Shown here piece by piece: positions 45,555-63,841 of a stretch of 64,000 bases of DNA. Each line of letters begins with the position of its first letter. The stretch's first letter is position 1. The notes under the pieces were generated by a model. The model did no database searches. It saw nothing but the letters and a program-made list of their open reading frames with translations, and was not told where the DNA came from. Source of the stretch: Clostridia bacterium (GTDB lineage Bacteria > Bacillota > Clostridia > Oscillospirales > Acutalibacteraceae); the NCBI GenBank assembly GCA_017516745.1, contig JAFXBF010000007.1:46079-110078 (forward strand). The letters are read 5' to 3'. Made by a program: the position numbers and the translations under genes.

Positions 45555-45594
45555 ATGCGTGGTAATAAATTTAAATTTGTAAAGGTGAATACTG

Positions 45595-46574: not shown

Positions 46575-46599
46575 ATATAGCTTATTGGTATTCTATTAT

Positions 46600-46628
46600 T
46601 ATAGATTTATATAGTATTAAAAACATCA
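46600..46628 (+). repeat. Right copy of the ~30-nt direct repeat
   Basis: See 44615-44646. Confidence 0.5.
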
Positions 46629-47047: not shown

Positions 47048-47082
47048 AAAAAATTTTTTAAAAAAATAAAAAATTTTTTCAA

Positions 47083-47150
47083 AAAAATCACCCCAATTTG
47101 CCCCTTCCCAGTGCAAACATAATGAAGGGTATTTTTTCAAAAGCCTTTCA
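47083..47150 (+). repeat. 67-nt direct repeat, copy 2
   Basis: See 46714-46780. Confidence 0.7.
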
Positions 47151-47612: not shown

Positions 47613-47702
47613 ATGATTCACGCTTTGCTTGTACTGCCCGGTCTTTACGGTGCAGTAATTCTTCAGACAATCAGCGAAATCGTTTCTCGCTTTGGCTTCT
47701 AA
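47613..47702 (+). CDS. Candidate 29-aa hydrophobic peptide MIHALLVLPGLYGAVILQTISEIVSRFGF
   Basis: A strong SD (AAGGAGG, 47598-47604) precedes ATG 47613. The stop lies 6 nt before the parB-like start. It falls below the ORF-track length cutoff. Confidence 0.35.
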   Translation: MIHALLVLPGLYGAVILQTISEIVSRFGF

Positions 47703-47708
47703 TTTAAG

Positions 47709-48590
47709 ATGAACATACAGAGCGAGGAAAAAGTAGTCCAAATCCCAATCAGCCAAATTCGAGATTTCCCCGAACATCCGTACAAGGTCAAAGACGATGA
47801 GAGCATGAATGAACTTGTTGACAGCATTATGCAGAGAGGCCTAATACAGCCGGTCATCATAAGACCAACGGAGGACGGGAACTACGAAATGGTATCGGGA
47901 CACAGACGAAAACGAGCCTTTGAAATTGCGGGGATAAAAAACATCCCCGCAAGAGTAAAAGAAATGACGAAGGACGAAGCAATATTAGCAATGGTTGATT
48001 CAAACCTTCAAAGAGAGGTTATCCTACCCAGCGAAAAGGCATTCGCATACAAGATGAGGTTGGAGGCTATGAAGCGACAAGCAGGCAGACCTGCAAAAGA
48101 TAATTCGGACCCGACGGGACCGAATTTAATCGGAACACGCTCTAACACTGAATTGGCACAAGAGGTTAATGAAAGTGAAACACAAATAAAGAGGTATATC
48201 CGATTAACCAACCTTATCCCCGAACTGCTTGAACTTGTTGATGAGGGCAGAATTGCAATGCGACCTGCGGTAGAAATATCCTACTTACCCGAAGAAGCAC
48301 AAATGCAGTTGTATGAAACCATTGACTACAATGACGCAACACCTTCGCACTATCAGGCTATCCGATTGAGAAACTTTCATCGTGATGGCAAATTAACACC
48401 AGAGGTTATTGAAGCGATAATGTCAGAGGAAAAACCGAACCAAAAAGAAAAATCCCCGTTTCGGGACAAACGTATAGTCGGAGTAATTCCCAAGCACATA
48501 CCGCAAGAAAGACATTGCGAATATGTTATTAAAGCAATAGACTACTATAACCGCCATTTAGAAAAAGTAAGGAATAACCGTTCACGGTAA
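47709..48590 (+). CDS. ParB/Srx N-terminal domain protein (ParB-like)
   Basis: IPISQIRDFPEHPYKV, ...LVDSIMQRGLIQPVIIRP....YEMVSGHRRKRA (GxxRxxA box). Confidence 0.88.
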   Translation: MNIQSEEKVVQIPISQIRDFPEHPYKVKDDESMNELVDSIMQRGLIQPVIIRPTEDGNYEMVSGHRRKRAFEIAGIKNIPARVKEMTKDEAILAMVDSNLQREVILPSEKAFAYKMRLEAMKRQAGRPAKDNSDPTGPNLIGTRSNTELAQEVNESETQIKRYIRLTNLIPELLELVDEGRIAMRPAVEISYLPEEAQMQLYETIDYNDATPSHYQAIRLRNFHRDGKLTPEVIEAIMSEEKPNQKEKSPFRDKRIVGVIPKHIPQERHCEYVIKAIDYYNRHLEKVRNNRSR

Positions 48591-48608
48591 TTCCTTACTT
48601 TATTTTTT
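48565..48608 (+). terminator. Intrinsic terminator overlapping the parB-like stop codon
   Basis: 11-bp stem AAGTAAGGAAT / ATTCCTTACTT followed by TATTTTTTAT. Confidence 0.72.
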
Positions 48609-48635
48609 ATCCAAAAAAGAAAGGAAATAAAAATT

Positions 48636-48908
48636 ATGGTAATCAAAACAACCATTAAAAAGATGTTCAACAACGACAAGTCGCTTAAGGCTTTTGCCGA
48701 TGTTGAGATTGACGGCTCCATTGTAATCCACAGTGTTGCCGTTATGGAAACCGAAAAGGGCAGACACATTTCTATGCCCTACACCAAGTGGAAGAACAAG
48801 GACGGCGAAGAAAAACAGCACGACGTTGTTCATCCCATCACTTCATATGCAAGAAGACAGATTGAAGAATCCGTACTCGCTGCGTATGACAGCCACATCA
48901 AAGAATAA
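48636..48908 (+). CDS. SpoVG-family nucleic-acid-binding protein
   Basis: 90 aa. LKAFADVEIDGSIVIHSVAVMETEKGRHISMPYTKWKNKDGEEKQHDVVHPITSYARRQIEESVL parallels the SpoVG core (..A.A.I.....F.VH.I.V.....G.FV.MP........D...P.....R..I...). Confidence 0.78.
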   Translation: MVIKTTIKKMFNNDKSLKAFADVEIDGSIVIHSVAVMETEKGRHISMPYTKWKNKDGEEKQHDVVHPITSYARRQIEESVLAAYDSHIKE

Positions 48909-48934
48909 TTAAAAGAAAGTTGAGGTAAAAATTT

Positions 48935-49201
48935 ATGTTTAACAAAATTAAGTCAGGTATCAGCAAGGTATGCTCAAAGGTTAAGTCAGCGTTCACATCC
49001 GCAGAAGCTGCGGTAACAGCAAAGGCTCACGAAGTTCTCGACGGCACGGTTGCCGAAGCTTACGTCGATACAGGTGTCAAAATCCTTATCGCCGTTGTAA
49101 TCGGTGCCCTTCTTCTCGGCGGTCTTTACACGCTCTTCAACACAACCATTATGCCCACAGTCACAAGCAAAATCACAGAACTCTTTAACTACAAGGGTTA
49201 A
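48935..49201 (+). CDS. flp: Flp/Fap-type (type IVc) prepilin, copy 1
   Basis: 88 aa: a leader of about 37 aa, then G/TVAEAY and the hydrophobic helix VKILIAVVIGALLLGGLY, matching the Flp G/XXXXEY processing motif. Confidence 0.72.
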   Translation: MFNKIKSGISKVCSKVKSAFTSAEAAVTAKAHEVLDGTVAEAYVDTGVKILIAVVIGALLLGGLYTLFNTTIMPTVTSKITELFNYKG

Positions 49202-49220
49202 GAAACAGGAGGTGAAAAAT

Positions 49221-49487
49221 ATGTTTAACAGAATCAAGTCAGGTGTCAGCAAGGTATGCTCAAAGGTTAAGTCGGCGTTCACATCCGCAGAAGCGGCAGT
49301 AACAGCAAAGGCTCACGAAGTTCTCGACGGCACAGTTGCCGAAGCTTATGTCGATACAGGTGTCAAAATCCTTATCGCCGTTGTAATCGGTGCCCTTCTT
49401 CTCGCAGGTCTTTACACGCTCTTCAACTCAACCATTATGCCCACAGTCACAACCAAGATTGAGGGACTCTTTAACTACAAGGGTTAA
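49221..49487 (+). CDS. flp: Flp/Fap-type prepilin, copy 2 (tandem paralog)
   Basis: My manual alignment finds 18 nucleotide and 8 amino-acid differences from copy 1. SD AGGAGG lies 8 nt upstream. Confidence 0.72.
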   Translation: MFNRIKSGVSKVCSKVKSAFTSAEAAVTAKAHEVLDGTVAEAYVDTGVKILIAVVIGALLLAGLYTLFNSTIMPTVTTKIEGLFNYKG

Positions 49488-49497
49488 AAAGCAAACG

Positions 49498-49535
49498 GCA
49501 GGGCAGTTTTTATGCTGCCCTGCTTAACTCTTTTA
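49498..49535 (+). terminator. Hairpin/terminator after the pilin genes
   Basis: 9-bp stem GCAGGGCAG / CTGCCCTGC followed by TTAACTCTTTT. Confidence 0.6.
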
Positions 49536-49548
49536 AGGACTGATTAAA

Positions 49549-50217
49549 ATGCTTAATACTTTAATAATCAAACCCGTAAATCCTATAGGACACGGACTCA
49601 CTCACGTCTTTGATTTTAAAATATTCACTAATATTCTGTTGTCAAGTATGCTATGTGTCCTTGTGTTTCTTCTTGTGAAACTCATAATCAAGAAAACACC
49701 GCAACAGGAAATGGAAGAAAAGGATACTTCTCTTTGCTATCTTGTATCAGCAGTTGTATTTGTATTGTTATTTATCGTTTTCGGTTGGTCAGTACAACTC
49801 GTTAAGGGTGCAGTGTTCTTCTTTATACTGCTCTATGCCTCCCTATGCGATATTCAGACACGCAGAGTTAAAGATGTTGTTTCGGTGATGATATTCATTT
49901 CCGGTTTTATCTCATTATCTCTGTTGGAAATACTCACTCACACTATCGGTGCATTTCTTGTGGGCGGTATTATGTTTGTCTGTGCTTTGTTTTCTAAAAA
50001 CAGGCTCGGCGGTGCAGATGTCAAGATAACTGCAGCCAGCGTTTTTGTTCTCGGTATGTGGAACGGTATAGCAGGTCTTGTTATCGGTCTTATTCTATCC
50101 GTTATCGTTACACCCATTATCAACCGAAAGAAGAAACTCAAAGAAATGAGCCTCCCTCTTGTCCCCTATCTTTCAATAGGATTTATGGCAATGTATTTAA
50201 TCCAAGGAGGAATTTAA
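49549..50217 (+). CDS. tadV: A24-family prepilin peptidase (TadV/CpaA-like, no methyltransferase domain)
   Basis: 222 aa, polytopic, with two Asp motifs (LCDIQTRRV and GGADVK). Confidence 0.85.
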   Translation: MLNTLIIKPVNPIGHGLTHVFDFKIFTNILLSSMLCVLVFLLVKLIIKKTPQQEMEEKDTSLCYLVSAVVFVLLFIVFGWSVQLVKGAVFFFILLYASLCDIQTRRVKDVVSVMIFISGFISLSLLEILTHTIGAFLVGGIMFVCALFSKNRLGGADVKITAASVFVLGMWNGIAGLVIGLILSVIVTPIINRKKKLKEMSLPLVPYLSIGFMAMYLIQGGI

Positions 50218-50221
50218 CCCA

Positions 50222-50962
50222 ATGAAGAACAGAACAGCCATCGGTATTGTCTGTATCATTCTTGCGGTTGCGGTAACATTCGTTGTTTCACCGTTTGTCA
50301 ATAAGATTTCGGAACAGAAGGTTGAAGTTTTCCGATTCACAAAAGACATCTCGCAGGGTACACAGATAACCGATGCAGATTTTGAAATTGCAGAAATTCT
50401 CAAAGCGAATGTTCCTGCAAATGCCATTACCGAAAAAGACAAGGTAATAGGCAAATACGCAAGTACCGATATTCTCATCGGTGACTATGCAACATCGGCA
50501 AGGCTCACGGCTGATGCAAATTCAGCCTCACATATCCTCGGCTCACTTAACGGAGATAAGGTCGCAATGAGTATAACTATCAACTCTTTTGCAGGCGGTC
50601 TTTCGGGTAAGCTTGAAAACGGAGATATTGTCAGCATTTATGTTACCGATAAAAACGGCGAAACAACCGTTCCCGGTGAACTGAAATATGTAAAGGTTAT
50701 CACTACCACCACAGCAGGCGGTATTGATGAAGCAGAGGTTGTCCCCAATGAGGACGGCAGTTTTGAGCTTCCCACAACAATTACTGTTCTCGTTTCGGTA
50801 AAGCAGGCTTCAATCCTTGCCAACTACGAAGAAAACGCTTCAATGCACGTTGCCCTTGTTTACAGAGGTGACGATGCAAAGGCACAGCAGTTCCTTGATG
50901 CGGAAGATAAGTTCCTTGCAACGGCAAAACCCGCTAACGGAGGTGACTCCACAAATGGCTAA
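50222..50962 (+). CDS. cpaB: CpaB/RcpC-like Flp pilus assembly protein (SAF domain)
   Basis: An N-terminal TM anchor is followed by a SAF-like segment (VEVFRFTKDISQGTQITDADF). Confidence 0.78.
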   Translation: MKNRTAIGIVCIILAVAVTFVVSPFVNKISEQKVEVFRFTKDISQGTQITDADFEIAEILKANVPANAITEKDKVIGKYASTDILIGDYATSARLTADANSASHILGSLNGDKVAMSITINSFAGGLSGKLENGDIVSIYVTDKNGETTVPGELKYVKVITTTTAGGIDEAEVVPNEDGSFELPTTITVLVSVKQASILANYEENASMHVALVYRGDDAKAQQFLDAEDKFLATAKPANGGDSTNG

Positions 50963-51680
50963 AATCATAGCGGTTTGCGGCTCACCCAACGGCGGAAAAA
51001 CAACTGTTGCTTTTAAACTCGCACAGGAAATGTATTGCAATACGGACACAGGTGGTGTCATCTTTCTTTCACCCTCTATGACAGTTCCCGCACTCGGACT
51101 CCTTTTTCCCAACTATACTCCCGACAGTCTTTTCTCTCTCGGCGGGGTATTGGATAACACGGACATATCACAGGAGAGTATTCTTGCTCACCTTGTCACG
51201 GTAAAGGATATGCCGAATTTCGGCTGTCTTGGATATAAGTCGGATGAAAACAAACACAGCTACGCAAAATTAACGGACGATAAAGTAAATGCTTTTTTCA
51301 ATGTTCTGTCAGAAATGGCAGGATATGTGTTCGTTGAATGTACGGAAAATGACGATGATCTCATATCGAGAAAAGCCATCAACTGTGCAGATTCGGTTGT
51401 ACTTGTTCTTTCACCCGATTTGAAAGGTATGACCTATTACACCGCAAACAAAGGACTTTTCGGCAGTGATGATGACAGAAGTTTTAAGGTTATAAACTCA
51501 ACCGACAATGACCTCTTTCTGCCGATTGAAGATGTGAAAGCACATCTTAAAAATGTGTCCTGCACCTTACCTTATTCCAGACAGGTAAGACAGCAGCTTC
51601 TTGACGGTCAGTTATATATGAGAGTTAACGACAAGAAGTACCGCAAAGAACTCTCAAATCTCATCTATAAAATAATGTAA
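50955..51680 (+). CDS. tadZ: TadZ/CpaE-like ParA/MinD-family ATPase
   Basis: MAKIIAVCGSPNGGKTTVAFKLA shows a deviant Walker A. The start overlaps the cpaB stop by 8 nt. Confidence 0.68.
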   Translation: MAKIIAVCGSPNGGKTTVAFKLAQEMYCNTDTGGVIFLSPSMTVPALGLLFPNYTPDSLFSLGGVLDNTDISQESILAHLVTVKDMPNFGCLGYKSDENKHSYAKLTDDKVNAFFNVLSEMAGYVFVECTENDDDLISRKAINCADSVVLVLSPDLKGMTYYTANKGLFGSDDDRSFKVINSTDNDLFLPIEDVKAHLKNVSCTLPYSRQVRQQLLDGQLYMRVNDKKYRKELSNLIYKIM

Positions 51681-51702
51681 TAAAGAAAGGAATTAAAATC
51701 TT

Positions 51703-52584
51703 ATGAAAAAATTTATTTGTATTCTCACAGCACTCTCAATCCTTGTATGCTTCGGTGCAGTAACCGCCTATGCCGCAGAAACAACCGAAACACCTGCAAC
51801 CGACAGCACGGACACAACACTTCCCGAAAGCACAACCACAGACAATGCAGACGGCGAAGATACAACCGATGTCAGCAACCCCTCAACAGAAGATACCACA
51901 ACCGACAGTTCTGACGATGTAACAACTGACGGCTCTGACGATACAACAAACGAGGATAACTCTGACACAACAGAAACTCCCGAAAACGGTGATACAACCG
52001 ATACACCCGCTGACGGTGATGAAACAACTGACAACACCGAAACACCCGATGACAGTACAACAGATGACGGTAACACCGATGAGGAAGCAACTCCCGGTGA
52101 TGCAACAACCGATGACGGTGCAAACGGCGAAGGTACTACAGATGAAAACACCGAAAACAATGACAATCCCGATGAAGATAATGCCGATAACAATGAAACA
52201 CCTACTGATACTCCCGATGAAGATACCACAGACGGTGACGGCGTCGGCGATGCAGGTACAATCATTGAAGGTGATGACACTGATAATGATAACAGCAATA
52301 ACGGCACACCTAACCCCGGTGATGAGGTTATCACAATTCCCGATGACCTTAACAACCTTATAGGCGGTATTCTCGGCGGTCTTGTAAACGGTGAACTTGA
52401 CGGCGATAACAACGGCAATAACAATACTGCTCCCGATGGCTACAACAACCCTGAAATTCCCGACACAGGTGCCGAGTCAGCAGTTCCCGCTATTGCTACA
52501 CTTATCACTTCTGCGGCAACCGCAGTAGGAAGTATCCTTTTCAAGAAAAAGAAAGACGGCACACTTTTTTCAAAGGGAGAATAA
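51703..52584 (+). CDS. Extremely acidic Thr/Asp/Glu/Asn-rich secreted protein with a sortase-type sorting signal
   Basis: It has a signal peptide (MKKFICILTALSILVCFGAVTAYA), about 220 aa of low-complexity acidic sequence, and a C-terminal IPDTG motif with a hydrophobic stretch and a KKKKD tail. Confidence 0.7.
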   Translation: MKKFICILTALSILVCFGAVTAYAAETTETPATDSTDTTLPESTTTDNADGEDTTDVSNPSTEDTTTDSSDDVTTDGSDDTTNEDNSDTTETPENGDTTDTPADGDETTDNTETPDDSTTDDGNTDEEATPGDATTDDGANGEGTTDENTENNDNPDEDNADNNETPTDTPDEDTTDGDGVGDAGTIIEGDDTDNDNSNNGTPNPGDEVITIPDDLNNLIGGILGGLVNGELDGDNNGNNNTAPDGYNNPEIPDTGAESAVPAIATLITSAATAVGSILFKKKKDGTLFSKGE

Positions 52585-52587
52585 GAG

Positions 52588-53904
52588 ATGATACAGCAAA
52601 ACATTGATTTTGTGCCGCTGCTGTCAATGACGCAGGAACACATCTCCTCCCGATATGCAGCGGCTTTGACCGACACAAACAAGCTCTCACAGTTAAGGTC
52701 ATATATCGAAAAGTTTGTCCGTGATTCCAATTATACTGTTGAAGGACTTACCTTTTCAGAACTTTGCGATAAGCTGTATTCCGAAATGGCGGAATACTCA
52801 ATCCTCACAAAGTATCTCGGCAAGGACAGAATTGAAGAAATCAACATAAACGCTTGGAACGATATTGCGATTACCTACACAAACGGTAAAACAGAAAAGG
52901 CAAAGGAACATTTCTATTCACCGAGCCACGCAGTAGATATTGTAAAGCGTTTGCTTCACCACTCGGGAATGATTATCGACAATTCCACACCTATGTCACA
53001 GGGACACTTACCCAACAACACCCGAATTACTGCTCTCAAAGAGCCTATTGTTGATGATGAAATCGGCGTAAGCGTTTCAATCAGACTTTTGCATCCTTCA
53101 AGAGTCAACAAGAAAGAGATTATCAAATCGGGCAATGCCACCGAGAAGATGATGGACTTCCTTTGTATGTGTTTGAGATACGGTGTATCCACCGTTGTAG
53201 CGGGTGCAACAAGTTCGGGCAAAACAACACTTCTTAATGCTCTTTTATCCACTATCCCCAACGGTAAGCGTGTGTTTACCATTGAAAGCGGTTCAAGAGA
53301 ATTAAGTCTTGTAAAAACAAGGGGCGGAAAGGTAGTGAACAACGTTGTTCACACCTTGTCCCGCCCTTCCGAAAATGAAACTTATGACATAACGCAGGAA
53401 GACCTTGTTGTTGCTTCACTCCGTTTTAACCCCGATATAGTATGTGTCGGCGAAATGCGAGATGTTGAATGTTATTCAGCAGTTGAAGCAAGTCTTACGG
53501 GACACACGGTTGTATCAACAGTTCACGCATTTGCGGCAGATTCCGCACATATGAGAATTGCCCTGCTTTGTCAGAAGCGTTTTCCCATTGATTTCAAGAC
53601 CTCTCTTATGCAGGCAGGTCAGGCATTCCCCATTGTCGTATATACTCATAAACTTGAAAACAATCAAAGAAAGATAATGGATATTTCCGAATGTGAGATA
53701 CTTCCCAACGGTGAAAGACTCTATCACACCTTGTTCAGATTTAATATCACAAAGAACGAGATAGTGAACGGCAGATATGTAACCGAGGGATATTTTGAAC
53801 AGCCGGAAATAATGTCAGACAACCTCAAAAGGAAACTTCTTCAGTTTGGCGTTCCGCAGGAGGAACTCAACAAATTCTTGAAGAAAGGGGTTGAATATGA
53901 ATGA
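52588..53904 (+). CDS. tadA: TadA/CpaF-type secretion ATPase
   Basis: Walker A GATSSGKTT, Walker B DIVCVGEMRD and His box GHTVVSTVHA. Confidence 0.92.
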   Translation: MIQQNIDFVPLLSMTQEHISSRYAAALTDTNKLSQLRSYIEKFVRDSNYTVEGLTFSELCDKLYSEMAEYSILTKYLGKDRIEEININAWNDIAITYTNGKTEKAKEHFYSPSHAVDIVKRLLHHSGMIIDNSTPMSQGHLPNNTRITALKEPIVDDEIGVSVSIRLLHPSRVNKKEIIKSGNATEKMMDFLCMCLRYGVSTVVAGATSSGKTTLLNALLSTIPNGKRVFTIESGSRELSLVKTRGGKVVNNVVHTLSRPSENETYDITQEDLVVASLRFNPDIVCVGEMRDVECYSAVEASLTGHTVVSTVHAFAADSAHMRIALLCQKRFPIDFKTSLMQAGQAFPIVVYTHKLENNQRKIMDISECEILPNGERLYHTLFRFNITKNEIVNGRYVTEGYFEQPEIMSDNLKRKLLQFGVPQEELNKFLKKGVEYE

Positions 53905-54824
53905 TTTTTCCGATGATAGCCTCTGTTTTTCTTATTATTGCTATTGTCTGTTTTCTTGGTTTAACTCCTACACAGATTTCAGATGACTTAATGAAAATAA
54001 CAACCCCAAAGAGTTCTCTGCGAGAAAAAGCGAGAGCTTTGAGGGCGGGCAAAAAGAAAAAGAGCCTGGGCAGTAGGCTCATTTATGTTCAGTCGGCACT
54101 TGAAGCAACGGGCAAATCGGGTAAGTTTGCCCTTGTCTGCTCTGCCTCACTTGTCCTTTTGGCGGCAGGTGCGGTTGTTGCTATCCTTATTGATAACGTA
54201 TTCCTTGTTCCCGTGTTAGCTGTTGCGTTTGCGATGATACCTTTTATATATGTAAGAAACACTCTGTCATATTACAACAAACATATACAGGACGAGTTGG
54301 AAACAACTCTTTCAATTATCACAACCTCATACAACAGAAACTCGGATATTGTTTCGGCGGTAAATGAAAATCTTGCATATATCAGACCTCCGCTGAAAGA
54401 ATGCTTTACCGCATTTGTGGGTGACGCTATGGCTGTTTCATCGAACACAAAACAGGCTTTGAGAAATCTTAAATCAAAGGTTGATAATGAGATATTCCAC
54501 GAATGGTGCGATACACTCATTCAGTGTCAAGATGACAGAGCACTCAAAGATACTCTGTTGCCCATAGTCACAAAACTCACCGATGTCAGAATAGTAAACA
54601 GCGAACTTAACACGATGATGTCAGCGGTAAGAACGGAATACTACACAATGGTAGGTCTTGTTGTGGGTAACATACCCCTGCTCTATGTTCTCAACAAAGA
54701 TTGGTTTCACACTCTTATGTACGAAACTGCGGGTAAAGTTGTACTCGGCGTATGCGGTGCGGTTATTCTCATAACCTATATCTTTATGCTCAAATACACA
54801 AAACCCGTAGAGTACAAACGGTAA
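53901..54824 (+). CDS. tadB: TadB-like platform protein (T2SS-F family)
   Basis: 307 aa with an N-terminal TM, a central cytoplasmic helical domain and C-terminal TMs. It is coupled to tadA by a 4-nt overlap. Confidence 0.78.
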   Translation: MIFPMIASVFLIIAIVCFLGLTPTQISDDLMKITTPKSSLREKARALRAGKKKKSLGSRLIYVQSALEATGKSGKFALVCSASLVLLAAGAVVAILIDNVFLVPVLAVAFAMIPFIYVRNTLSYYNKHIQDELETTLSIITTSYNRNSDIVSAVNENLAYIRPPLKECFTAFVGDAMAVSSNTKQALRNLKSKVDNEIFHEWCDTLIQCQDDRALKDTLLPIVTKLTDVRIVNSELNTMMSAVRTEYYTMVGLVVGNIPLLYVLNKDWFHTLMYETAGKVVLGVCGAVILITYIFMLKYTKPVEYKR

Positions 54825-54837
54825 AGGAGGCGGTTAA

Positions 54838-55707
54838 ATGGTTGGAGTTATAACAGGAGTGTTCTGCGGTATTGCCGCATATTTCATCTTGGCAGATATT
54901 TACCGCATACCGTATATGCGAACTTCAAAGGCTGTCAACAACCTTGCAAAACAGCAGAAAGAAAAGACAAGCAGCCTTGATGTATGGCTTTCAAACATAG
55001 CCTCATTTATCGCAAAGAAAATACACCTTAACGAGTTCAAGCGTATGCAGCTTGAATCGGATTTGAGAACAGCACAGATGAACATTTCCCCCGAAATGTT
55101 TATGGCTAATGCTATTGTTAAATCCCTTATTGTCGGTATCTTCGCAATACCGATGCTTTTCATATTCCCCATTCTCTCTCCCGTAATTCTTTTTCTTGCG
55201 TTCATTCTTTACCGAATGAATATGAAAGGAATTGCAAACCGAATTAAAGCAAAAAGAGCCAAAATCGAATATGAGTTTCCCCGCCTTGTATTCAAGATTG
55301 AAAAGAGTATATCTCACAACAAGGATGTACTTGGTATGCTTAAATCATTTGCACCTCACGCTTGTCCCGAACTCAAACACGAGCTTGATATTACAGTAGC
55401 GGATATGCGTTCCGGTAATCTTGAAGTAGCCATAACAAGACTTGAATCAAGAGTAGGCTCACCGCTTATGAGTGATGTATGCCGAGGACTTATTGCCCTT
55501 GTCAGAGGTGACGACAACACGGTTTATTGGTCATCTCTCTCAATGAAGTTTGCGGATATTCAAAGACAGCAGTTAAGGCTTGAAGCACAGAAGATACCCA
55601 AAAAGACAAAGAAACTCTCAATGAGTTTGCTTGTCTGCTTTATGCTTATGTATGTTGTTGTCATCATCTCACAGATTATCAGTTCTGTCGGCGTTCTTTT
55701 CGGATAA
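54838..55707 (+). CDS. tadC: TadC-like platform protein (T2SS-F family)
   Basis: 289 aa with the same topology as TadB. Confidence 0.78.
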   Translation: MVGVITGVFCGIAAYFILADIYRIPYMRTSKAVNNLAKQQKEKTSSLDVWLSNIASFIAKKIHLNEFKRMQLESDLRTAQMNISPEMFMANAIVKSLIVGIFAIPMLFIFPILSPVILFLAFILYRMNMKGIANRIKAKRAKIEYEFPRLVFKIEKSISHNKDVLGMLKSFAPHACPELKHELDITVADMRSGNLEVAITRLESRVGSPLMSDVCRGLIALVRGDDNTVYWSSLSMKFADIQRQQLRLEAQKIPKKTKKLSMSLLVCFMLMYVVVIISQIISSVGVLFG

Positions 55708-55722
55708 CGGAGGTGAAAGGAT

Positions 55723-56133
55723 ATGAAGAAACTTATTACTTCCCGAAAGGGCGAAGGCTATATTGATGTGGCTATCGGCTTGGTTGCACTTATGATGGTG
55801 CTTGTAGTAACCCTTAACATCTATTCCTTTTTAACACTCAAGCAGGATATGGACGAGATCAGCGGACAGCTTATTGAAACTGCCGCATTTACAGGCTCAT
55901 TCGGTGATGAGTTTGAGGAACGGTGTGAGGAACTTAAAGACACTTTCTTTGATTTTGATGTAACCACTTCTGCAACAGAATACTATAACGAAACATACCA
56001 GCGTGTGCAGCTTGGAGATACGATGACTCTGACAATCTCTGTTCATACCTATGTGCAGGGCGTCGGTGCCTTTAAAATACCCATTACAGTACAAAGTACA
56101 AGGTCGGGTATTTCGGAAAAGTATTGGAAGTAG
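55723..56133 (+). CDS. Pseudopilin-like protein (DUF4320/TadE-like)
   Basis: The N-terminus MKKLITSRKGEGYIDVAIGLVALMMVLVV has a Gly followed by a (E)GY motif and a hydrophobic helix, like the pilins. Confidence 0.5.
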   Translation: MKKLITSRKGEGYIDVAIGLVALMMVLVVTLNIYSFLTLKQDMDEISGQLIETAAFTGSFGDEFEERCEELKDTFFDFDVTTSATEYYNETYQRVQLGDTMTLTISVHTYVQGVGAFKIPITVQSTRSGISEKYWK

Positions 56134-56143
56134 GTGACGGAAA

Positions 56144-56623
56144 ATGAAGATATTGAAAGACACCAAAGGCGAAGGCTATGTATCAATATGTGTACTAATC
56201 ATCGTAATTGTCGCTATCTTCTCAAGCATTTTCACTTATGCATCCGCAATCTCGGTTATCAATGTCACACGGGAAAACAGCAAGGTTGTTTTAGATAATT
56301 TCGTCACCACAAACTCCACTCTTATATTCAACAGCATAAAGCAAGGTAACGACTACACCGAAACACTTGATTTCCCCGAATACACAGAAAAGCTCTGTGA
56401 ATTTTGCACATTGGATTTATCTGCCGATACGCTGTATAGTTATGACACAGACGGCAATCTGCAATATTCAATGACACTTCCTCAAATGAGTTTTCAAAAG
56501 GATAATCAGCTTGAAATATGTGTCAGATATACCGTTTCTGTGCCGATACAGTTTGCAGGGAAAACGGTTACGACTGCAAATGTACCGATAGAAATTGTAT
56601 CAATATTAACCGAAAAATTTTAA
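56144..56623 (+). CDS. Pseudopilin-like protein, second
   Basis: N-terminus MKILKDTKGEGYVSICVLIIVIVAIF. Confidence 0.5.
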   Translation: MKILKDTKGEGYVSICVLIIVIVAIFSSIFTYASAISVINVTRENSKVVLDNFVTTNSTLIFNSIKQGNDYTETLDFPEYTEKLCEFCTLDLSADTLYSYDTDGNLQYSMTLPQMSFQKDNQLEICVRYTVSVPIQFAGKTVTTANVPIEIVSILTEKF

Positions 56624-56644
56624 TTGTTTAGGAGGCAAAAGAAA

Positions 56645-57349
56645 ATGAAAGACAATTCAAACTCAAAACAGAACAACAAAACTATCTTTATCCTTGTTGC
56701 GGTGCTGCTGATAATTCTTGCACTTATCTTTGCACTTTTCGGCAAGTCCTGCGGAAAGGATACAGACACCGAAACGACTACCTCAACCACACAGCACGTC
56801 ACCGATAACGATAATCTCAATCTTGAGGACATCACCATCGGAACAAATCTGTATGTTGAGGAATCGAAGAAGGTTGACGAGAATATGATAACTCTCGCTG
56901 CACCTGAAAAAATGACAAAGCCTGATAATCACGGCTCAGTCGAAAAAACAACGAATAAGCAGGCGGAAGCAGTAAAACCGAATGACGGTCCCGGTATTGT
57001 AATCGTCGGCGATGACGATGCAAATGCCTATAACTGCGGTGTCAAGAAACATAACTGTGACAGCAAGGAAACTCACGATTTCATCGTAAGCCTTGAAAAG
57101 AAAGGCTGTTCAATCTGCGGCTCTCACACCTGTAAGAGCTTCTATGCGGTTGATGAATGGGGTAACTCCTGCTACGATATTACCAAGTGTCCCAAATACA
57201 CAATAAAGAATGACCCCACCGTTTATTGCAGTACCTGCGGTAAGAAAATCGGTGACGGCTCAAACGGAACTTGCGTAAGATATGTTGAAGATACTGTTTG
57301 CGAGATTTGTCACGGTGCGGTTAAGGGTAAAACCTGCCACTCGCACTAA
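56645..57349 (+). CDS. Membrane-anchored Cys-rich protein (multiple CxxC motifs)
   Basis: I chose the start at ATG 56645, 8 nt after AGGAGG. It has one TM helix and a C-terminal ~110 aa containing 13 Cys, including CSICGSHTC, CSTCGKK and CEICHG. Confidence 0.6.
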   Translation: MKDNSNSKQNNKTIFILVAVLLIILALIFALFGKSCGKDTDTETTTSTTQHVTDNDNLNLEDITIGTNLYVEESKKVDENMITLAAPEKMTKPDNHGSVEKTTNKQAEAVKPNDGPGIVIVGDDDANAYNCGVKKHNCDSKETHDFIVSLEKKGCSICGSHTCKSFYAVDEWGNSCYDITKCPKYTIKNDPTVYCSTCGKKIGDGSNGTCVRYVEDTVCEICHGAVKGKTCHSH

Positions 57350-57362
57350 ACCAAAAGAGATG

Positions 57363-57400
57363 ATGACCTGATGTAATGTCAGGTCATTTTTTTGTTTTTT
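57363..57400 (+). terminator. Intrinsic terminator between the Cys-rich gene and the adhesin gene
   Basis: 9-bp stem ATGACCTGA / TCAGGTCAT followed by TTTTTTTGTTTTTT. Confidence 0.7.
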
Positions 57401-57409
57401 AAGAAGGAG

Positions 57410-60400
57410 ATGATTAGTATTAAACGAGTAATATCTATTATCTTGGTTGTGTGTTCTCTGATTTGTATGATACCCACAAATGCCTTTGCTTTGTCTTGGG
57501 ACGGCAGTTCTGCAGGCGGCACGGGCGGTACTTCATCGGCATCACCTAACGGATACGCAATCAGAACAACAAGCGATAACTGTATAGGTTATCGTTTCAG
57601 TGCTGTAACATCATCGGGTTCGATGAAGGTCAGCAAGGTTATTGACGTGTTCCGAAACACAAGTTACGGTAATCTCGGATACACGGACGGATATAAGTTC
57701 AGCACAAAGAACAACAAAAAGCAGCTCATATCCAAACAGAATAATGGCTTTACAACAGCAAGAAGCACCACGAATTGCTACAAGGAAAGCTCACAAGGCT
57801 TTTCAACAACCCTGCCTGCACCTTCGGGAATGGAAACTTGGCAGAACAACGAAAACAACATCAATAAAGTTCTTTCTCTGCTCGGTGTCGGCAGTGTAGC
57901 AAATATGTCAAAGGGCGATATGGTTATTGTTGAGCCGATTTACGATATAAGGCTTGAGAGTGTTTATCACTCCATCACCGTAACTGAAACAGCTTTATAC
58001 GGCAAATATATCCTCGGTGCATCAAGTAACGGTGGTACAAGTAACACCTCTGCTACTTGGGGATTTATCGCTTCATACACAAACAGAGTTTATCCCAATG
58101 CACTTTATACACCTGACGGACAAGGTCTTTGGACTTCCGCTTCTTCCATAGGCAGCAGCAATAAAGAAACCTTCTATAACATCATAAATAAAGGTTACGG
58201 TGTCGGTATCGCATACCAAGAAACAAGCGGCAGTTCTTCATCATCAGGCTCATCAAGTTCAACGAGTTCGACCTATACCATTAAATTTAACGGTAACGGT
58301 AATACAAGCGGCTCTATGTCAAATCAGACTGTTACTGTCGGCAGTTCGACCCGATTAAATTCAAACAACTTTAAAAAGACGGGTTATGAGTTTGTCGGAT
58401 GGAACACGAAGTCCGGCGGTACGGGAACGAGCTATGATAACCGTGAGTATGTAAAGAATCTGACCTCGGCAGGTGGTACAATAACGCTTTATGCACAATG
58501 GCGTCCTGCCGTACTTGAAGTTTATTACGATGCTAATGACGGCTCTTTGAGTAACTCAAGCTACAGGTTGCTTTTGGATACGATTTACACCGCTTCACCT
58601 TATTCAAAGTTCACGGATAAATGGACTTATAATAACACCAAGTCGGGCGGTCTTTGTAATGCTTCAACCTTCGGTCTTTATCGCACAGGATATACCTTTA
58701 CCAAATGGGGTAAATATTCTTGGGGCGGAACTCTGTTCGACCAAGACGATTCCTCGCTGAAGCCTACGGATTTGAAATCGGGTATTACAAGCGGTGACAC
58801 ATCACTCACACTATATGCTCAATGGGAGCCAAATACCTATACTATCAAATTCAACGGCAACGGCAGTACAAGCGGCTCTACCGCTTCAATGTCAATGACA
58901 TACGATGTTGCTAAAAACCTCACGGCCAACGGATTTACAAAATCCGGTTATGCCTTTGCAGGTTGGAATACTAAAGCCAACGGCACGGGTACAAGTTATG
59001 TTAACAGAGAATCGGTTAAAAATCTGACCTCTACAAACGGCGGTACTGTTACTCTCTATGCTCAATGGACGGTCAGCAACTATTCTATTGCCTTTAACGG
59101 CAACGGACACACAGGCGGCTCTACCGCTTCAATGTCGGTGAATTTCAACGCCTCGGTAACTCTCCGTGCAAACGGATTTGTCAAGACGGGACACACGTTT
59201 AAGAATTGGAACACCAATTCAAACGGCACGGGAACATCTTACTCAGATAAACAGACGGTAACAAATCTTTCCTCTACTGCAGGCGGTACGGTTTATCTCT
59301 ATGCACAGTGGAATCCGAACTCATATACCATACAGTTTAACGGTAACGGAAACACGGGCGGCTCTACCGCTTCAATGTCTATGAGATACGGAACACCGAA
59401 AAACCTCACTGCAAACGGCTTTACAAAAACGGGATATGTGTTCAACGGTTGGAGTACCAATGCAGACGGCACAGGTACAATCTATTCCGACAAACAGCAG
59501 GTAAACAATCTGACCTCTACCAACGGCGGAACTGTTACCCTTTATGCAAAGTGGAAACCCGCAACTTACACGGTGCAGTTCAACGGCAACGGTAATACAG
59601 GCGGCTCAACTGCTTCAATGACTATGACCTATAATGTTGAAAAAGCACTTACCGCAAACGGATTTACCAAGAGTGAGTATAAGTTTACGGGTTGGAACAC
59701 CAAAGCTGACGGTACGGGAACTGCATACACAGACAAACAGAAGGTCAAAAATCTTTCATCTGTCAACGGCTCAATCGTTACTCTCTATGCTCAATGGATT
59801 TATGACCCCGTTCTTGATGTTAAGGAATGTGATGCTTACAGCGGAACAAAGAGCGATAAGACAAAACTGTTCGGCATAAGCACAGGTGCAACCTTTGATG
59901 AATACGAATATAAAAACGGTTATGCCACCATCGGTGACACTGTATGGTTTAATGTGTATTTCCCCTATGAAACACAGAACATAAGGGTAAGGCAGTATGT
60001 CAAGAACGGCGGAGATTGGATTACAAGAGAAGTAAACCTCAATCCAGATTATCCCGAAACACTTTGGTTCCCTGTTCAGTTCACGGATAAATACAAAACC
60101 GTAACCGCAGATATTGAGGCTTACGAAGTACAAGCCAAAATGGATTGGATTGATGCTGAAGGTAATGTTCTTAAAAGCGGTACAGTTGAAACCTTCTATA
60201 TCCCCATAAAGCCTGTTCTTCACAGAAACGAGGTAAAAATCCGAGGATATGAGGGCGGATATATTGCGTATAACGGCAAGAACGGTCTTTACGGTAAAGT
60301 ATATCACGGTCAGCATATCAAAATCGAATATAAATACCGAACAGACAGCACTTGGAAACCCCGTACTTGTATGAGAGGTTCTTTATATTACTATAACGGC

Positions 60401-61903
60401 TCTGAATGGGTTAATGCCTATACCGAAAACAGCGGCTATGATGCAAGTAAAAATAACTATGGCATACTCAGCACTTCTGACACAGGTATAAGCAGTATTC
60501 TCAATCCATATACCGTACCTAAAGTTACAAACAGCACCCTAAGATTCAAACTTGAAACTTGGTGGGCAAAAGATGAGGAACATACTCACGAAACCACTTG
60601 GATTGAAATTCCCGTTGTTCCCTGCGACCTTGAATTGGAAGAAATAGAGTTCAAAAGACAGAACTCTGCTACAACTCTTGACCCCTATGACCTTGTTGCA
60701 GGTGAAAAAGTATCGGTTTATTACTTCTACAGGAATCATACCGACACAAAGATATATTTCAACGGTTTCCGTAATGACAAATCACAGATTGATACTGTGT
60801 ACGGAATTCCTGCAAATTCAAGAGCATATCTGCGAGGTTACGATTTTGTAGTACCGAATATTCGAACATTCGATTTTTGGGGCGGTATCTATCTTGAAGG
60901 TATGGGTATATACAACACGCAGTATGAAACTGACGGTACAAACAATGAGTTGACGTTGAAATGTAAGGTGCGTCATCCGCTGACACTTACACCCATAGCT
61001 CAAAATGCGGACTACCGTGAGAACACCGAGGTAATTACGAGCTTTTGGCTCAACAACACTTACACAGATGATTACACACCGAGCAACAACATATCTATTC
61101 TGTTTAAGGTATATAACGGCTCAAAACAGATAGCCACATATACCAAAACACAGGCTGTTGTTCCCGGTCTTGAAAACAATCTTGTGTATTTCAAGTGGAA
61201 AGTTCCTACAGGTCTGAACGGTGCAAAGGTAAAGATTACGGGTGAAATAATCGAGGACGGTGTATCATACAATCTTTCATCCGCAAACTACACTACAACA
61301 CCCACAACCGTATCTGAAACAAACGATACACAGTTTGAAAAGACCAAACCTGCAGGTTTCTCAATCCCTCTAACAAAGGAAGGCAAGATCCAAGCTGCTT
61401 CTTGGTGGGAATGGACTTATTCATCGGGGGCATTTAAAAAGGTAAGTTATGCCGTTGGTATTGCGGACAGTTCCGCAACACTCACACCCGCAACAGGCTC
61501 AACCGCTGTTAAAAACGGCATTTCTAGGACTATGAAATCGGGCTACGGTTTATCCTTGGCACTTATGAATAATAATAAACCTGTTTCGGGTTACACTATG
61601 CCGTCATCGGCGGCATACACTAAACCGCAGTTTGCCTATGCTCTTATGCCTGAGTTTGATTACTCAACCAAGAATGGTGAATACAGAACGCTTGACTTGG
61701 TATCTAACCAATGGAGATTCAGACCTAACGGAACATATGGCAGAATTCATTTCACACCAATTTGGTATCCCAACGGAAAATATATAATGAGTATTACTCA
61801 GAGCGACTGTTGGACACCTGCGGGTATGATTACAAAAACGATAAACACAAACACAATAAACATTTCCGAATCAGCCTACGATGATTGGTATGTCGGAAGA
61901 TAA
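57410..61903 (+). CDS. Large secreted repeat protein / putative adhesin with Listeria-Bacteroides (Flg_new) repeats
   Basis: It has a signal peptide (..VISIILVVCSLICMIPTNAFA), a poly-Ser linker, six repeats of about 80 aa (YTI.FNGNG.TGGSTASM......L.ANGF.K.GY.F.GWNT...GTGT.Y.....V.NL....G..V.LYAQW) and a ~700-aa C-terminal region. There is no LPXTG motif. The start is uncertain (ATG 57410 abuts the SD; TTG 57392 is an alternative). Confidence 0.85.
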   Translation: MISIKRVISIILVVCSLICMIPTNAFALSWDGSSAGGTGGTSSASPNGYAIRTTSDNCIGYRFSAVTSSGSMKVSKVIDVFRNTSYGNLGYTDGYKFSTKNNKKQLISKQNNGFTTARSTTNCYKESSQGFSTTLPAPSGMETWQNNENNINKVLSLLGVGSVANMSKGDMVIVEPIYDIRLESVYHSITVTETALYGKYILGASSNGGTSNTSATWGFIASYTNRVYPNALYTPDGQGLWTSASSIGSSNKETFYNIINKGYGVGIAYQETSGSSSSSGSSSSTSSTYTIKFNGNGNTSGSMSNQTVTVGSSTRLNSNNFKKTGYEFVGWNTKSGGTGTSYDNREYVKNLTSAGGTITLYAQWRPAVLEVYYDANDGSLSNSSYRLLLDTIYTASPYSKFTDKWTYNNTKSGGLCNASTFGLYRTGYTFTKWGKYSWGGTLFDQDDSSLKPTDLKSGITSGDTSLTLYAQWEPNTYTIKFNGNGSTSGSTASMSMTYDVAKNLTANGFTKSGYAFAGWNTKANGTGTSYVNRESVKNLTSTNGGTVTLYAQWTVSNYSIAFNGNGHTGGSTASMSVNFNASVTLRANGFVKTGHTFKNWNTNSNGTGTSYSDKQTVTNLSSTAGGTVYLYAQWNPNSYTIQFNGNGNTGGSTASMSMRYGTPKNLTANGFTKTGYVFNGWSTNADGTGTIYSDKQQVNNLTSTNGGTVTLYAKWKPATYTVQFNGNGNTGGSTASMTMTYNVEKALTANGFTKSEYKFTGWNTKADGTGTAYTDKQKVKNLSSVNGSIVTLYAQWIYDPVLDVKECDAYSGTKSDKTKLFGISTGATFDEYEYKNGYATIGDTVWFNVYFPYETQNIRVRQYVKNGGDWITREVNLNPDYPETLWFPVQFTDKYKTVTADIEAYEVQAKMDWIDAEGNVLKSGTVETFYIPIKPVLHRNEVKIRGYEGGYIAYNGKNGLYGKVYHGQHIKIEYKYRTDSTWKPRTCMRGSLYYYNGSEWVNAYTENSGYDASKNNYGILSTSDTGISSILNPYTVPKVTNSTLRFKLETWWAKDEEHTHETTWIEIPVVPCDLELEEIEFKRQNSATTLDPYDLVAGEKVSVYYFYRNHTDTKIYFNGFRNDKSQIDTVYGIPANSRAYLRGYDFVVPNIRTFDFWGGIYLEGMGIYNTQYETDGTNNELTLKCKVRHPLTLTPIAQNADYRENTEVITSFWLNNTYTDDYTPSNNISILFKVYNGSKQIATYTKTQAVVPGLENNLVYFKWKVPTGLNGAKVKITGEIIEDGVSYNLSSANYTTTPTTVSETNDTQFEKTKPAGFSIPLTKEGKIQAASWWEWTYSSGAFKKVSYAVGIADSSATLTPATGSTAVKNGISRTMKSGYGLSLALMNNNKPVSGYTMPSSAAYTKPQFAYALMPEFDYSTKNGEYRTLDLVSNQWRFRPNGTYGRIHFTPIWYPNGKYIMSITQSDCWTPAGMITKTINTNTINISESAYDDWYVGR
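58271..59795 (+). repeat. Tandem coding repeats (six Flg_new-type units; the second is degenerate and longer)
   Basis: LYAQW/LYAKW recurs at unit ends and FNGNG at unit starts. Confidence 0.8.
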
Positions 61904-61909
61904 ACACTA

Positions 61910-61940
61910 AAGGGCAGTCAAAAGGCTGCCCTTAACTTTT
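61910..61940 (+). terminator. Terminator after the adhesin gene
   Basis: Stem AGGGCAG / CTGCCCT followed by TAACTTTTT. Confidence 0.65.
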
Positions 61941-61957
61941 TGGAGGTAAATATATAA

Positions 61958-62278
61958 ATGGTATGTAATTACAGTAACACTATTGCAATAAAGCACGGTA
62001 TCAATTCCGCACTTATTGCAGGCTTTATCAACTACCGTTTAACGCATACAGACACCAAGTTTGAGGGCAGACCTTTTGTACGCATAACACAAAAATCTTT
62101 GACAGCCACATTCCCCTTTATGGGTGAAAAGGCTGTGCGAAATGCGATTAAACGGCTCGTGAAAGCAAATGTTATTTCGGTCAAGCAGTTCAGAAAATCA
62201 AAGTTTGACCATGCAAATTTCTATGCTCTCACGCAGTACGGCAAAACACTCATGGAAGGAGTTGAAGATATTGAGTGA
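61958..62278 (+). CDS. Small winged-helix-like DNA-binding protein (hypothetical)
   Basis: 106 aa. The ...ITQKSLTATFPFMGEKAVRNAIKRLVKANVISV... pattern resembles an HTH/wHTH. SD GGAGG lies upstream. Confidence 0.45.
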   Translation: MVCNYSNTIAIKHGINSALIAGFINYRLTHTDTKFEGRPFVRITQKSLTATFPFMGEKAVRNAIKRLVKANVISVKQFRKSKFDHANFYALTQYGKTLMEGVEDIE

Positions 62279-62285
62279 AAAACGA

Positions 62286-63820: not shown

Positions 63821-63841
63821 CAAGAAAAGTTATCGGACACC

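Follow-up and report, generated by a model that had tools for sequence, protein, structure and literature searches.

Within the 64,000-nucleotide stretch of contig JAFXBF010000007.1 (GCA_017516745.1) that was analysed here, referred to below as the window, positions 48935-61903 hold an array of 13 open reading frames (ORFs), all on the plus strand, which is very probably a Tad-like pilus module belonging to an integrative and conjugative element (ICE). The ICE resides in an uncultured bacterium from the gut, one of the Clostridia and of Oscillospirales/Acutalibacteraceae type. A preliminary description, made from the letters of this DNA, had read the array as a complete Tad/Flp pilus locus of 13 co-directional, mostly coupled genes on an island resembling a mobile genetic element. 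Our ORF calls agree with that layout: intergenic spacing ranges from -8 to +61 bp, clear Shine-Dalgarno sequences precede most of the 13 ORFs, and all 13 reading frames are intact. The genes, with lengths in amino acids (aa) and with transmembrane segments abbreviated TM, are as follows.

48935-49201, plus strand: pilin 1, 88 aa, Pfam DUF6133 (E 1e-24); predicted mature part ~48 aa
49221-49487, plus strand: pilin 2, a DUF6133 paralogue, 88 aa (Pfam DUF6133, E 2e-25)
49549-50217, plus strand: A24 prepilin peptidase, TadV-like, without a methyltransferase domain, 222 aa (Peptidase_A24, 5e-12)
50222-50962, plus strand: CpaB/RcpC-like protein with an N-terminal membrane anchor (Pfam RcpC 6e-10, SAF 1e-8)
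50955-51680, plus strand: P-loop NTPase in the TadZ/CpaE position, 241 aa, Walker A GSPNGGKTT
51703-52584, plus strand: acidic secreted protein rich in Thr and Asp; signal peptide; tail of IPDTG + TM + KKKK; pI 4.05
52588-53904, plus strand: TadA/CpaF-family secretion ATPase (Pfam T2SSE, 6e-31)
53901-54824, plus strand: TadB-like polytopic protein, a probable platform protein by topology, AlphaFold2 (AF2)/Foldseek comparison and synteny; no Pfam match
54838-55707, plus strand: TadC-like protein, a probable platform protein (T2SSF, E 0.72 over nearly the full domain)
55723-56133, plus strand: DUF4320 pseudopilin (Pfam DUF4320, 4e-26) with an RKG↓EGYID signal, the arrow marking the cleavage site here and below
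56144-56623, plus strand: second pseudopilin-like protein, no family match, TKG↓EGYVS signal
56645-57349, plus strand: bitopic membrane protein with a Cys/His-rich C-terminal domain and a conserved Cys pattern
57410-61903, plus strand: secreted Flg_new adhesin, 1497 aa (Pfam Flg_new x5, 2e-46)

Seven of the 13 proteins lie above the Pfam gathering score (the two pilins, the A24 peptidase, the CpaB-type protein, the T2SSE ATPase, the DUF4320 protein and the adhesin), and no significant Pfam or NCBIfam match was obtained for the P-loop, acidic, TadB-like, TadC-like, second pseudopilin and Cys-rich proteins. The A24 peptidase, CpaB and TadA named in the preliminary description are thereby borne out, through Peptidase_A24, RcpC plus SAF, and T2SSE respectively. 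The label of a complete Tad/Flp locus does not survive the same searches: the supposedly Flp-like pilins do not match Flp_Fap and both belong to DUF6133, the processing motif is a different one, and TadB, TadC and TadZ are assigned indirectly. Because no model match supports them, the family labels Flp, TadZ, TadB and TadC exceed what the hidden Markov models (HMMs) provide. The system is a divergent Tad-like subtype of the type IV filament superfamily, not a canonical Tad/Flp pilus, since its ATPase, peptidase and CpaB-type protein are those of a Tad system, its pilin is not Flp, and its TadB, TadC and TadZ counterparts are weakly matched. The absence of outer-membrane parts stands as first described. 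No secretin RcpA, RcpB or TadD was found by Pfam or NCBIfam among the 13 genes or their flanks, as is expected because the host is a monoderm.

Family-wide comparisons draw on a species-dereplicated genome collection, in which 66 loci with close TadA relatives were found, all of one ICE family; individual loci are cited by L numbers. Both catalytic Asp positions of the A24 peptidase (D101 and GGAD157) are invariant in 15 family members. The signal motif [K/T/R][K/V/I][A/G]↓E[A/G][Y/F][V/I] occurs in all 96 distinct family pilins and recurs in 33 of 47 DUF4320 proteins and 36 of 46 second pseudopilins, which points to one peptidase processing three substrate families. Cleavage would remove a long leader of 37 aa and leave a predicted mature pilin of ~48 aa beginning EAYVDTGVK; in the pilins of this copy, E stands four residues after the only Gly. 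Judged from these residues, the processing motif seems to resemble the archaeal class III signal more than the G↓XXXXEY of Flp pilins, consistent with the archaeal ancestry proposed for Tad (PMC6668835). Of the two proteins first described as pseudopilin-like, one belongs to DUF4320 and both share the signal motif of the pilins; full Pfam scans returned no match of either to TadE or any other pilin-type model. The second pseudopilin keeps its position throughout the ICE family and on the plasmids described below.

By phmmer against PDB, Caulobacter CpaF is the best match of TadA (1e-25 over residues 35-395); archaeal GspE/FlaI and VirB11 come after it. Against the NCBIfam VirB11, TadA-family and FlaI models it remains below all cut-offs, with the TadA-family and VirB11 models at ~126-130 bits. 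The CpaB-type protein reaches 5e-18 and 65 bits against TIGR03177, whose cut-off is 71.

The TadB-like and TadC-like proteins are ~300 aa each and have the topology expected of platform proteins, with one TM at each end and a TM pair in the centre. Comparison of their family profiles by hhalign (E 0.0025) suggests that they are paralogues. TadC-like aligns with nearly the whole T2SSF model at E 0.72 (best family member E 0.034), and its homologue on a plasmid is annotated as 'secretion protein F'. Pfam scans of 11+11+71 family members returned T2SSF only at E 0.002-0.7, with TadB-like reaching it in one of 71 relatives (E 0.002). An AF2 model of TadB-like from a 16-row alignment (pLDDT 78) has as its top Foldseek matches the cytoplasmic domains of PilC, EpsF, OutF and TcpE together with SpoIIIAB, none of them significant by E-value (E >= 0.8); TM(target) is ~0.57-0.76, and 0.63-0.76 for the four cytoplasmic domains, with an rmsd of 2.5-3.4 Å for most and a probability of up to 1.0. 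A role as platform proteins is thus supported but not proven for the two. The TadB-like family is large, with 689 representatives at E <= 1e-10 among 1.84 billion proteins. A 603-aa metagenome protein, P0123, is a head-to-tail TadB-like/TadC-like fusion with 47% identity over the full length of both; it recalls the two-domain PilC/GspF proteins and may be either a real fusion or a read-through artefact.

The protein in the TadZ position has weak ParA/MinD similarity (E 0.01-0.1) and lacks both a receiver domain and a deviant Walker A. Its single-sequence AF2 model (pLDDT 32) is unusable, and its homologue on pCd5_2 is annotated as 'AAA family ATPase'. Searched against PDB sequences, the TadB-, TadC- and TadZ-like profiles gave only P-loop noise and weak ParA/MinD matches. 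The TadZ, TadB and TadC labels of the preliminary description accordingly keep the support of synteny, topology and weak fold evidence but not that of a significant HMM match.

Three proteins outside the canonical Tad set had been singled out as partners of the pilus, and two of them are family-wide: the Cys-rich protein and the adhesin are present in 45 of 48 ICE-family loci, whereas the acidic protein was not detected outside close relatives, save for short versions in L020 and L062, and is a variable accessory. The acidic protein (26% D+E, 19% T) has a signal peptide and ends in IPDTG, a hydrophobic stretch and KKKK. Its earlier reading as a sortase substrate is plausible to the extent that this tail is a putative sortase signal, but the Gram_pos_anchor HMM does not match it, nor does any Pfam or NCBIfam family. 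In the Cys-rich protein, 11 Cys are invariant among the 15 sequences compared and a 12th is present in 14, within the motifs CxxCGSHxC, CxxC and a terminal TCHSH. The description of the accessory components as uncharacterised holds for the acidic and Cys-rich proteins, neither of which matches any described family. The adhesin consists of a signal peptide, an N-terminal domain, a Ser linker, about six Flg_new repeats (five of them scored by Pfam), a beta-rich region and a conserved C-terminal domain (residues 1201-1497). It has neither an LPXTG nor a TM anchor and no relative among PDB sequences. Its last ~300 aa recur within separate ~580-aa proteins on three clostridial plasmids, and the secreted adhesin may be pilus-associated.

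The pilus genes are embedded in a conserved backbone, of which the window contains the following.

47709-48590, plus strand: ParB-like, ICE backbone (Pfam ParB_N 1e-21, HTH_ParB)
48636-48908, plus strand: SpoVG-like, ICE backbone (Pfam SpoVG 5e-21), syntenic across the family
61958-63820, plus strand: three conserved backbone genes of 106, 194 and 317 aa, syntenic in the ICE family and in Tad-less ICEs

Beyond the window, its own contig continues with a 73-aa gene, a 2900-aa giant protein, two cargo genes (p161 and ROK) and DUF3848, and further on with DUF3991-Toprim, DUF3846, a NikA-like gene, a PF03432 relaxase (405 aa), DUF3801 and a VirD4-type type IV coupling protein (T4CP, 610 aa) that matches T4SS-DNA_transf/TrwB_AAD_bind (L160). 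The array is co-directional over more than 35 kb, p161 excepted, and the ICE runs more than 19 kb past the window end, at least as far as the relaxase and T4CP. In the giant protein (L067 11326-20028), a MutS_I-like domain is joined to an N6-adenine methylase segment and to an SNF2/ResIII helicase. The protein follows the pilus region in all family members; its family, typical of ICEs of Firmicutes, counts over 8000 close relatives in the database. The closest relative of its gene, in L153 (3023-14110), is 82% identical and split by a group II intron (RVT_1); upstream of it stand the same Flg_new adhesin and 106-aa gene, and downstream a relaxase, T4CP, TrbL_2, PrgI and VirB4 (DUF87/AAA_10). 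Because the window's own contig carries a relaxase and T4CP, and because the L153 relative adds TrbL_2, PrgI and VirB4, the island is an ICE. The ParB- and SpoVG-like neighbours named in the preliminary description are confirmed by Pfam. Its island is indeed mobile, but it is no isolated island, being part of an ICE whose backbone includes ParB, SpoVG and the downstream genes. The lower GC content it noted is real but modest (0.41-0.44 in the locus vs ~0.45-0.51 across most upstream host DNA).

The ROK gene (472 aa) and the divergent 161-aa membrane protein gene lie between the giant gene and DUF3848, ~9 kb past the window end (L160 8332-10486). The 161-aa protein has only two clusters in 5.8 billion proteins, both within related ICEs, and the p161/ROK pair is ICE-specific cargo. 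We considered whether the element ends after the giant gene, where the ROK gene follows, and rejected this, since the relaxase and T4CP come later on the same contig.

The same gene order runs through the family: (ParA)-ParB-SpoVG-pilins-A24-CpaB-P-loop-TadA-TadB-TadC-DUF4320-pseudopilin-Cys-rich-adhesin-p106-p194-p317-p73-giant. ParB lies upstream of the Tad genes in 40 of 40 loci with enough flank, an ICE backbone gene lies downstream in 41 of 42, and all core pilus genes are present in 44 of 46; in L048 Toprim and relaxase follow immediately after the pilus genes, and in L057 the T4CP does. TadA identity within the family ranges from 65 to 100%, with TadA 100% identical in 7 of the 66 loci and 99% identical in 4 more. 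From window position ~47068 to the locus ends (~63900), DNA is ~95% identical in L001-L011, which belong to different GTDB species. None of their left flanks is related to the window, and, the one common to L001 and L005 apart, most of these flanks have no relation among themselves either. Between species, the machinery proteins are 99-100% identical, ParB 87-97%, the adhesin 93-97% and the Cys-rich protein 90-99%. Cargo (GH43/EamA, ROK/p161, p80) differs between copies while the pilus genes stay fixed. The gene set is thus not core genome: different flanks surround ~95%-identical copies of the element in no fewer than 10 further species, which upholds the mobility first proposed, and the ICE is now spreading between species of gut Clostridia. 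Two loci have unexpected host labels. L013, on a Bacteroidaceae-labelled contig, has a degraded TadB-to-adhesin region and may be mis-binned, and L040, in an Agathobacter (Lachnospiraceae) bin, may mean a genuinely wider host range.

The left boundary of the element coincides with the tRNA-Arg gene that the preliminary description had placed beside the locus.

44248-44322, plus strand: tRNA-Arg(CCT), where the ICE is integrated and has its left boundary (ARAGORN, Rfam)
44323-44645, plus strand: ICE left-end non-coding region with five TTAGCAG/CTGCTAA motifs, conserved and collinear in L002 and L003

The window, L002 and L003 each have an intact tRNA-Arg followed by ~300 bp with TTAGCAG motifs and then the element. 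Five other loci (L001, L004, L006, L008 and L009) have a 3' half of tRNA-Arg(CCT) at the junction with the element, the gene being broken at its anticodon loop. Compensatory differences between hosts in the T-stems of these half-sites are a signature of site-specific integration into different genomes. A 41-nt copy of the 5' half of tRNA-Arg(CCT), 88% identical and ending at the anticodon loop, lies at 44122-44162, 86 bp before the intact tRNA, and similar 5'-half remnants are seen in L002, L003, L020 and L021. Together with the 3'-half junctions, these remnants suggest repeated recombination at the anticodon loop. The orientation of the tRNA-Arg relative to the element is opposite in the window, L002 and L003 as compared with L001-type copies. 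Host DNA left of the tRNA carries, by Pfam, a BlaR1-like M56 peptidase and a Penicillinase_R repressor (36761-39801, minus strand) and a shikimate/chorismate pathway operon (28383-36466, plus strand); such ordinary chromosomal genes confirm the ICE boundary at the tRNA. Between the tRNA and parB there is no integrase gene, and a search for the empty tRNA-Arg site through the flanking cyclase protein returned only occupied sites or contig ends.

The module is also found on circular plasmids with different conjugation backbones, namely Terrisporobacter pTPHSE1, C. difficile pCd5_2 and Oscillospiraceae CP141730. The pilin, A24, CpaB, P-loop, TadA, TadB, TadC and DUF4320 proteins are detectable on them by tblastn at 26-56% identity. 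On pCd5_2, tblastn gave no match for the pilin or A24 peptidase, and a prepilin peptidase is annotated there nonetheless. No match to the Cys-rich protein was obtained on any of the three at E <= 1e-3, and megablast of window 47700-64000 against PLSDB returned no match to any part of this DNA. On pTPHSE1 the module is followed by a CD1115-type VirD4, a pLS20_p028-family protein, a C40 peptidase and a MobP2 relaxase; CP141730 carries ParA/ParB, a 1610-aa surface protein, DUF3991-Toprim, TrbL and VirB4/DUF87. The presence of the module in plasmid regions encoding a type IV secretion system (T4SS) makes it a recurrent component of conjugative elements, not one-off cargo. Sister ICEs without Tad genes, found through the giant gene, have SpaA-domain adhesins with LPXTG anchors or BspA-type leucine-rich repeat proteins immediately upstream of the same small genes.

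We favour, at slightly better than an even chance, mating-pair formation or stabilisation as the main role of the pilus. We propose that the A24 peptidase would cleave the DUF6133 pilins and the two pseudopilins at the [A/G]↓E[A/G]Y site, and that the CpaF-like ATPase, acting on the TadB/TadC-like platform with CpaB and the P-loop partner, would polymerise the ~48-aa pilin through the wall. The two pseudopilins would prime or tip the fibre, and the Cys/His-rich ectodomain protein, the large Flg_new adhesin or both would provide binding specificity. The pilus may perhaps be retracted as in Caulobacter (PMC6920026). Such a pilus would capture and hold recipients so that the element's own T4SS could transfer DNA in the fluid, mixed environment of the gut.

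The preliminary description had offered mating-pair or host/substrate attachment without deciding between them; genomic context favours the former, and the latter is its main rival. Several considerations weigh against a mating role. The function is deduced from gene context alone. Tad pili elsewhere, including in Bifidobacterium, serve host or surface adhesion, and Flg_new repeat proteins are common surface proteins, so that a colonisation benefit is equally compatible with the genes. The 40 of 40 linkage to ParB does not represent 40 independent events, because the loci are all one ICE family; for the same reason, it is chiefly the three plasmid backbones that lend independent support. MOB-suite typing in PLSDB in turn lists all three plasmids as non-mobilizable, despite their annotated VirD4, VirB4 and MobP2. 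The DNA examined from the window's own contig ends just past the T4CP, so that VirB4, an integrase and the right end would lie outside it. Within the pilus itself, TadB, TadC and TadZ are assigned by inference, which sequence models do not confirm and for which the Foldseek E-values are non-significant.

The strongest competitor, which we regard as rather unlikely, is that the pilus and adhesin are adaptive adhesion cargo, helping the bacterium to attach to mucus or plant fibre, to host cells or to partners in biofilms, like the pili of Bifidobacterium breve or Aggregatibacter, and taking no part in DNA transfer. The adhesin's Listeria-Bacteroides repeats and the extra acidic wall-type protein would suit it, Tad pili are classically adhesion and colonisation organelles (PMC5696575, PMC6668835), and the tad plasmids of C. 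acnes have been interpreted in this way (PMC5696575). Against this reading, the module stays in its place and, at 99-100% protein identity, is better conserved than any other part of the element, whereas recognisable cargo is replaced from copy to copy. It also occurs on at least three different conjugation backbones, directly abutting VirD4/T4SS genes, and its slot is occupied in Tad-less sister ICEs by mating-type LPXTG adhesins. Taken together, fixed linkage, recurrence on plasmids, turnover of cargo and the adhesin slot of sister ICEs favour a role in transfer over interchangeable cargo.

A transfer role could also go further than tethering, with the Tad-like machine being an obligatory part of the DNA-transfer apparatus or serving DNA uptake as in Micrococcus luteus. 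There is precedent for each: transfer of PAPI-1 depends on its type IV pilus whatever the mating conditions (PMC12857230), and tad genes are needed for M. luteus transformation (cited in PMC5696575). TadA also scores near VirB11 and 'TadA family conjugal transfer-associated ATPase' models. Complete relatives, however, carry a full Gram-positive T4SS (T4CP, TrbL_2/VirB6-like, PrgI and VirB4), and many related ICEs with the same backbone have no Tad genes at all, which makes the module dispensable for the T4SS as such; we therefore consider this proposal improbable. Slightly less probable still is that this copy is an inactive relic whose pilus genes are carried along without function, as the insertions at its left end (GH43/EamA, p80) and the absence of an integrase, VirB4 or right end from the own-contig DNA examined, which stops just past the T4CP, might suggest, since the 13 ORFs are intact, tightly coupled and preceded by ribosome-binding sites, intact relaxase and T4CP genes follow on the same contig, and the 99-100% identity of the machinery proteins across species implies recent transfer and purifying selection.

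If its main role is indeed in mating, the pilus may, by analogy, play in Gram-positive hosts the part of the thin pilus of IncI plasmids (R64/TP114) or of the PAPI-1 pilus. The IncI thin pilus of R64 and TP114, with its PilV adhesins, likewise places a full type IV pilus set and dedicated adhesin(s) on a conjugative element beside an unrelated T4SS, and has been proposed or shown to join donor and recipient in liquid or in the gut (PMC9045228; PMC12857230). It differs in belonging to the T4b branch with PilQ/PilN, in its outer-membrane Proteobacteria hosts and in varying its adhesin by a shufflon; the mating role of the clostridial pilus is putative. PAPI-1/ICEclc-type elements resemble the clostridial ICE as tRNA-integrated ICEs encoding their own type IV pilus linked to transfer. 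PAPI-1 has a diderm host, an essential pilus and a reduced T4SS, unlike the clostridial relatives with their full Gram-positive T4SS set.

The nearest Gram-positive precedent is provided by the linear plasmids of C. acnes (p15.1.R1, pIMPLE), mobile elements with tad genes together with VirB4, TcpC and FtsK-like genes. There the pilin was detected on the cell surface and the locus was read as a colonisation factor (PMC5696575). These plasmids differ in their actinobacterial host and their high-GC, canonical Flp-type tad genes, and no relation to the clostridial module was found, the DNA of which has no match among PLSDB plasmids. The Clostridium leptum similarity that had been reported for the C. 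acnes tad plasmid proved to be contamination. Wall-anchored mating adhesins, such as PrgB of pCF10 and the SpaA/LPXTG proteins of the sister ICEs, would share the presumed task of donor-recipient contact, and the sister-ICE proteins occupy the equivalent backbone slot; they are single sortase-anchored proteins, in contrast to an ATP-driven polymerised filament.

Among Tad/Flp pili themselves (Aggregatibacter, Caulobacter Cpa, Bifidobacterium breve), the clostridial system shares the CpaF/TadA ATPase, CpaB/RcpC, an A24 peptidase without methylase domain, a pilin of predicted ~48 aa, two putative pseudopilins, two ~300-aa platform-like paralogues and a P-loop protein in the TadZ position. As in monoderm Tad/Flp loci, the genes form one operon without a secretin. 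It departs from Tad/Flp in its DUF6133 rather than Flp pilin, in predicted cleavage at [A/G]↓E[A/G]Y instead of G↓XXXXEY behind a long 37-aa leader, in a TadB/TadC pair outside the Pfam T2SSF model, and in a TadZ-like protein without receiver domain and deviant Walker A. The conserved Cys-rich membrane protein, the giant adhesin and the location inside conjugative elements are further additions.

Both type IV pilus-assisted conjugation and Tad-like pili are already known, and the clostridial module is a variant, not a new category. Recent reviews and a December 2025 preprint have Gram-positive conjugation systems relying on wall-anchored adhesins; our analysis suggests that a type IV pilus, and not just such adhesins, serves some Gram-positive conjugative elements to catch mating partners. 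Within incomplete literature coverage, which makes an earlier description possible, we found no paper linking Tad or type IV pilus genes to clostridial ICEs or plasmids and none mentioning DUF6133 or DUF4320; a survey of Faecalibacterium ICEs makes no mention of pili.

A broader proposal, which we hold tentatively and at somewhat under an even chance, is that a large and hitherto unrecognised class of Gram-positive conjugative elements, comprising gut Clostridia ICEs and plasmids and including those of C. difficile, builds a retractile Tad-like mating-pair pilus, whose pilins, platform, Cys-rich protein and adhesin domain would form an archaeal-like, conjugation-specialised sub-branch of type IV filaments. 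Should this class exist, the textbook view of Gram-positive conjugation, in which adhesins make contact and T4SS operons contain no type IV-type pili, would be revised. Should the pilus mediate donor-recipient capture, it would help to explain efficient gene flow among strict anaerobes in the fluid gut, the pilin, adhesin and Cys-rich protein would be host-range determinants, and targets for blocking transfer would be offered. Functional hypotheses can now be attached to four orphan families: DUF6133, DUF4320, TadB-like (~700-1000 clusters at 50% identity) and the Cys-rich protein. The relevance to specialists in conjugation and type IV filaments would be high if the mating role holds and moderate if the pilus is adhesion cargo.

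Additional features of the left end and of the array are listed below.

44646-46602, plus strand: variable cargo insertion, 1.96 kb, GC 0.35, with GH43/GH32-like and EamA transporter genes
46805-47047, plus strand: cassette with an 80-aa ORF (p80), between ~70-bp repeats at 46715-46780 and 47076-47150
47305-47362, plus strand: pemK RNA motif RF02913, 72.1 bits vs a gathering score of 34.8
49497-49524, plus strand: G+C-rich hairpin after the pilin genes, 11-bp stem with 7 GC pairs

The 1.96-kb GH43/EamA piece looks like a small cargo insertion into the left end of the ICE: it lies between ~28-bp direct repeats (44617-44645 and 46597-46625) and is absent from the otherwise collinear L003. The ~70-bp repeat around the p80 ORF reads aaaaatcaccccaattt.ccc..cccagtgcaaacataatgaagggtattttt. 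Most relatives have one copy of the repeat and no p80 ORF, p80 homologues being restricted to L003, L020 and L021.

The pemK RNA motif sits in a ~660-bp non-coding stretch upstream of parB. It was found upstream of parA/parB in all five ICE relatives tested (L015 5568-5663, L020 2850-2949, L032 4719-4815, L047 4973-5036 and L048 4748-4811) and not on plasmid pTPHSE1, and it may be a leader or regulator of a parB-spoVG-pilus transcript. No informative literature on the motif was found.

The hairpin at 49497-49524 is a possible attenuator or terminator, and attenuation at this point would raise the ratio of pilin to machinery. Two further strong hairpins follow the Cys-rich gene (57362-57388) and the adhesin gene (61910-61933), and the positions of all three suggest sub-operonic attenuation points within the 13-gene array.

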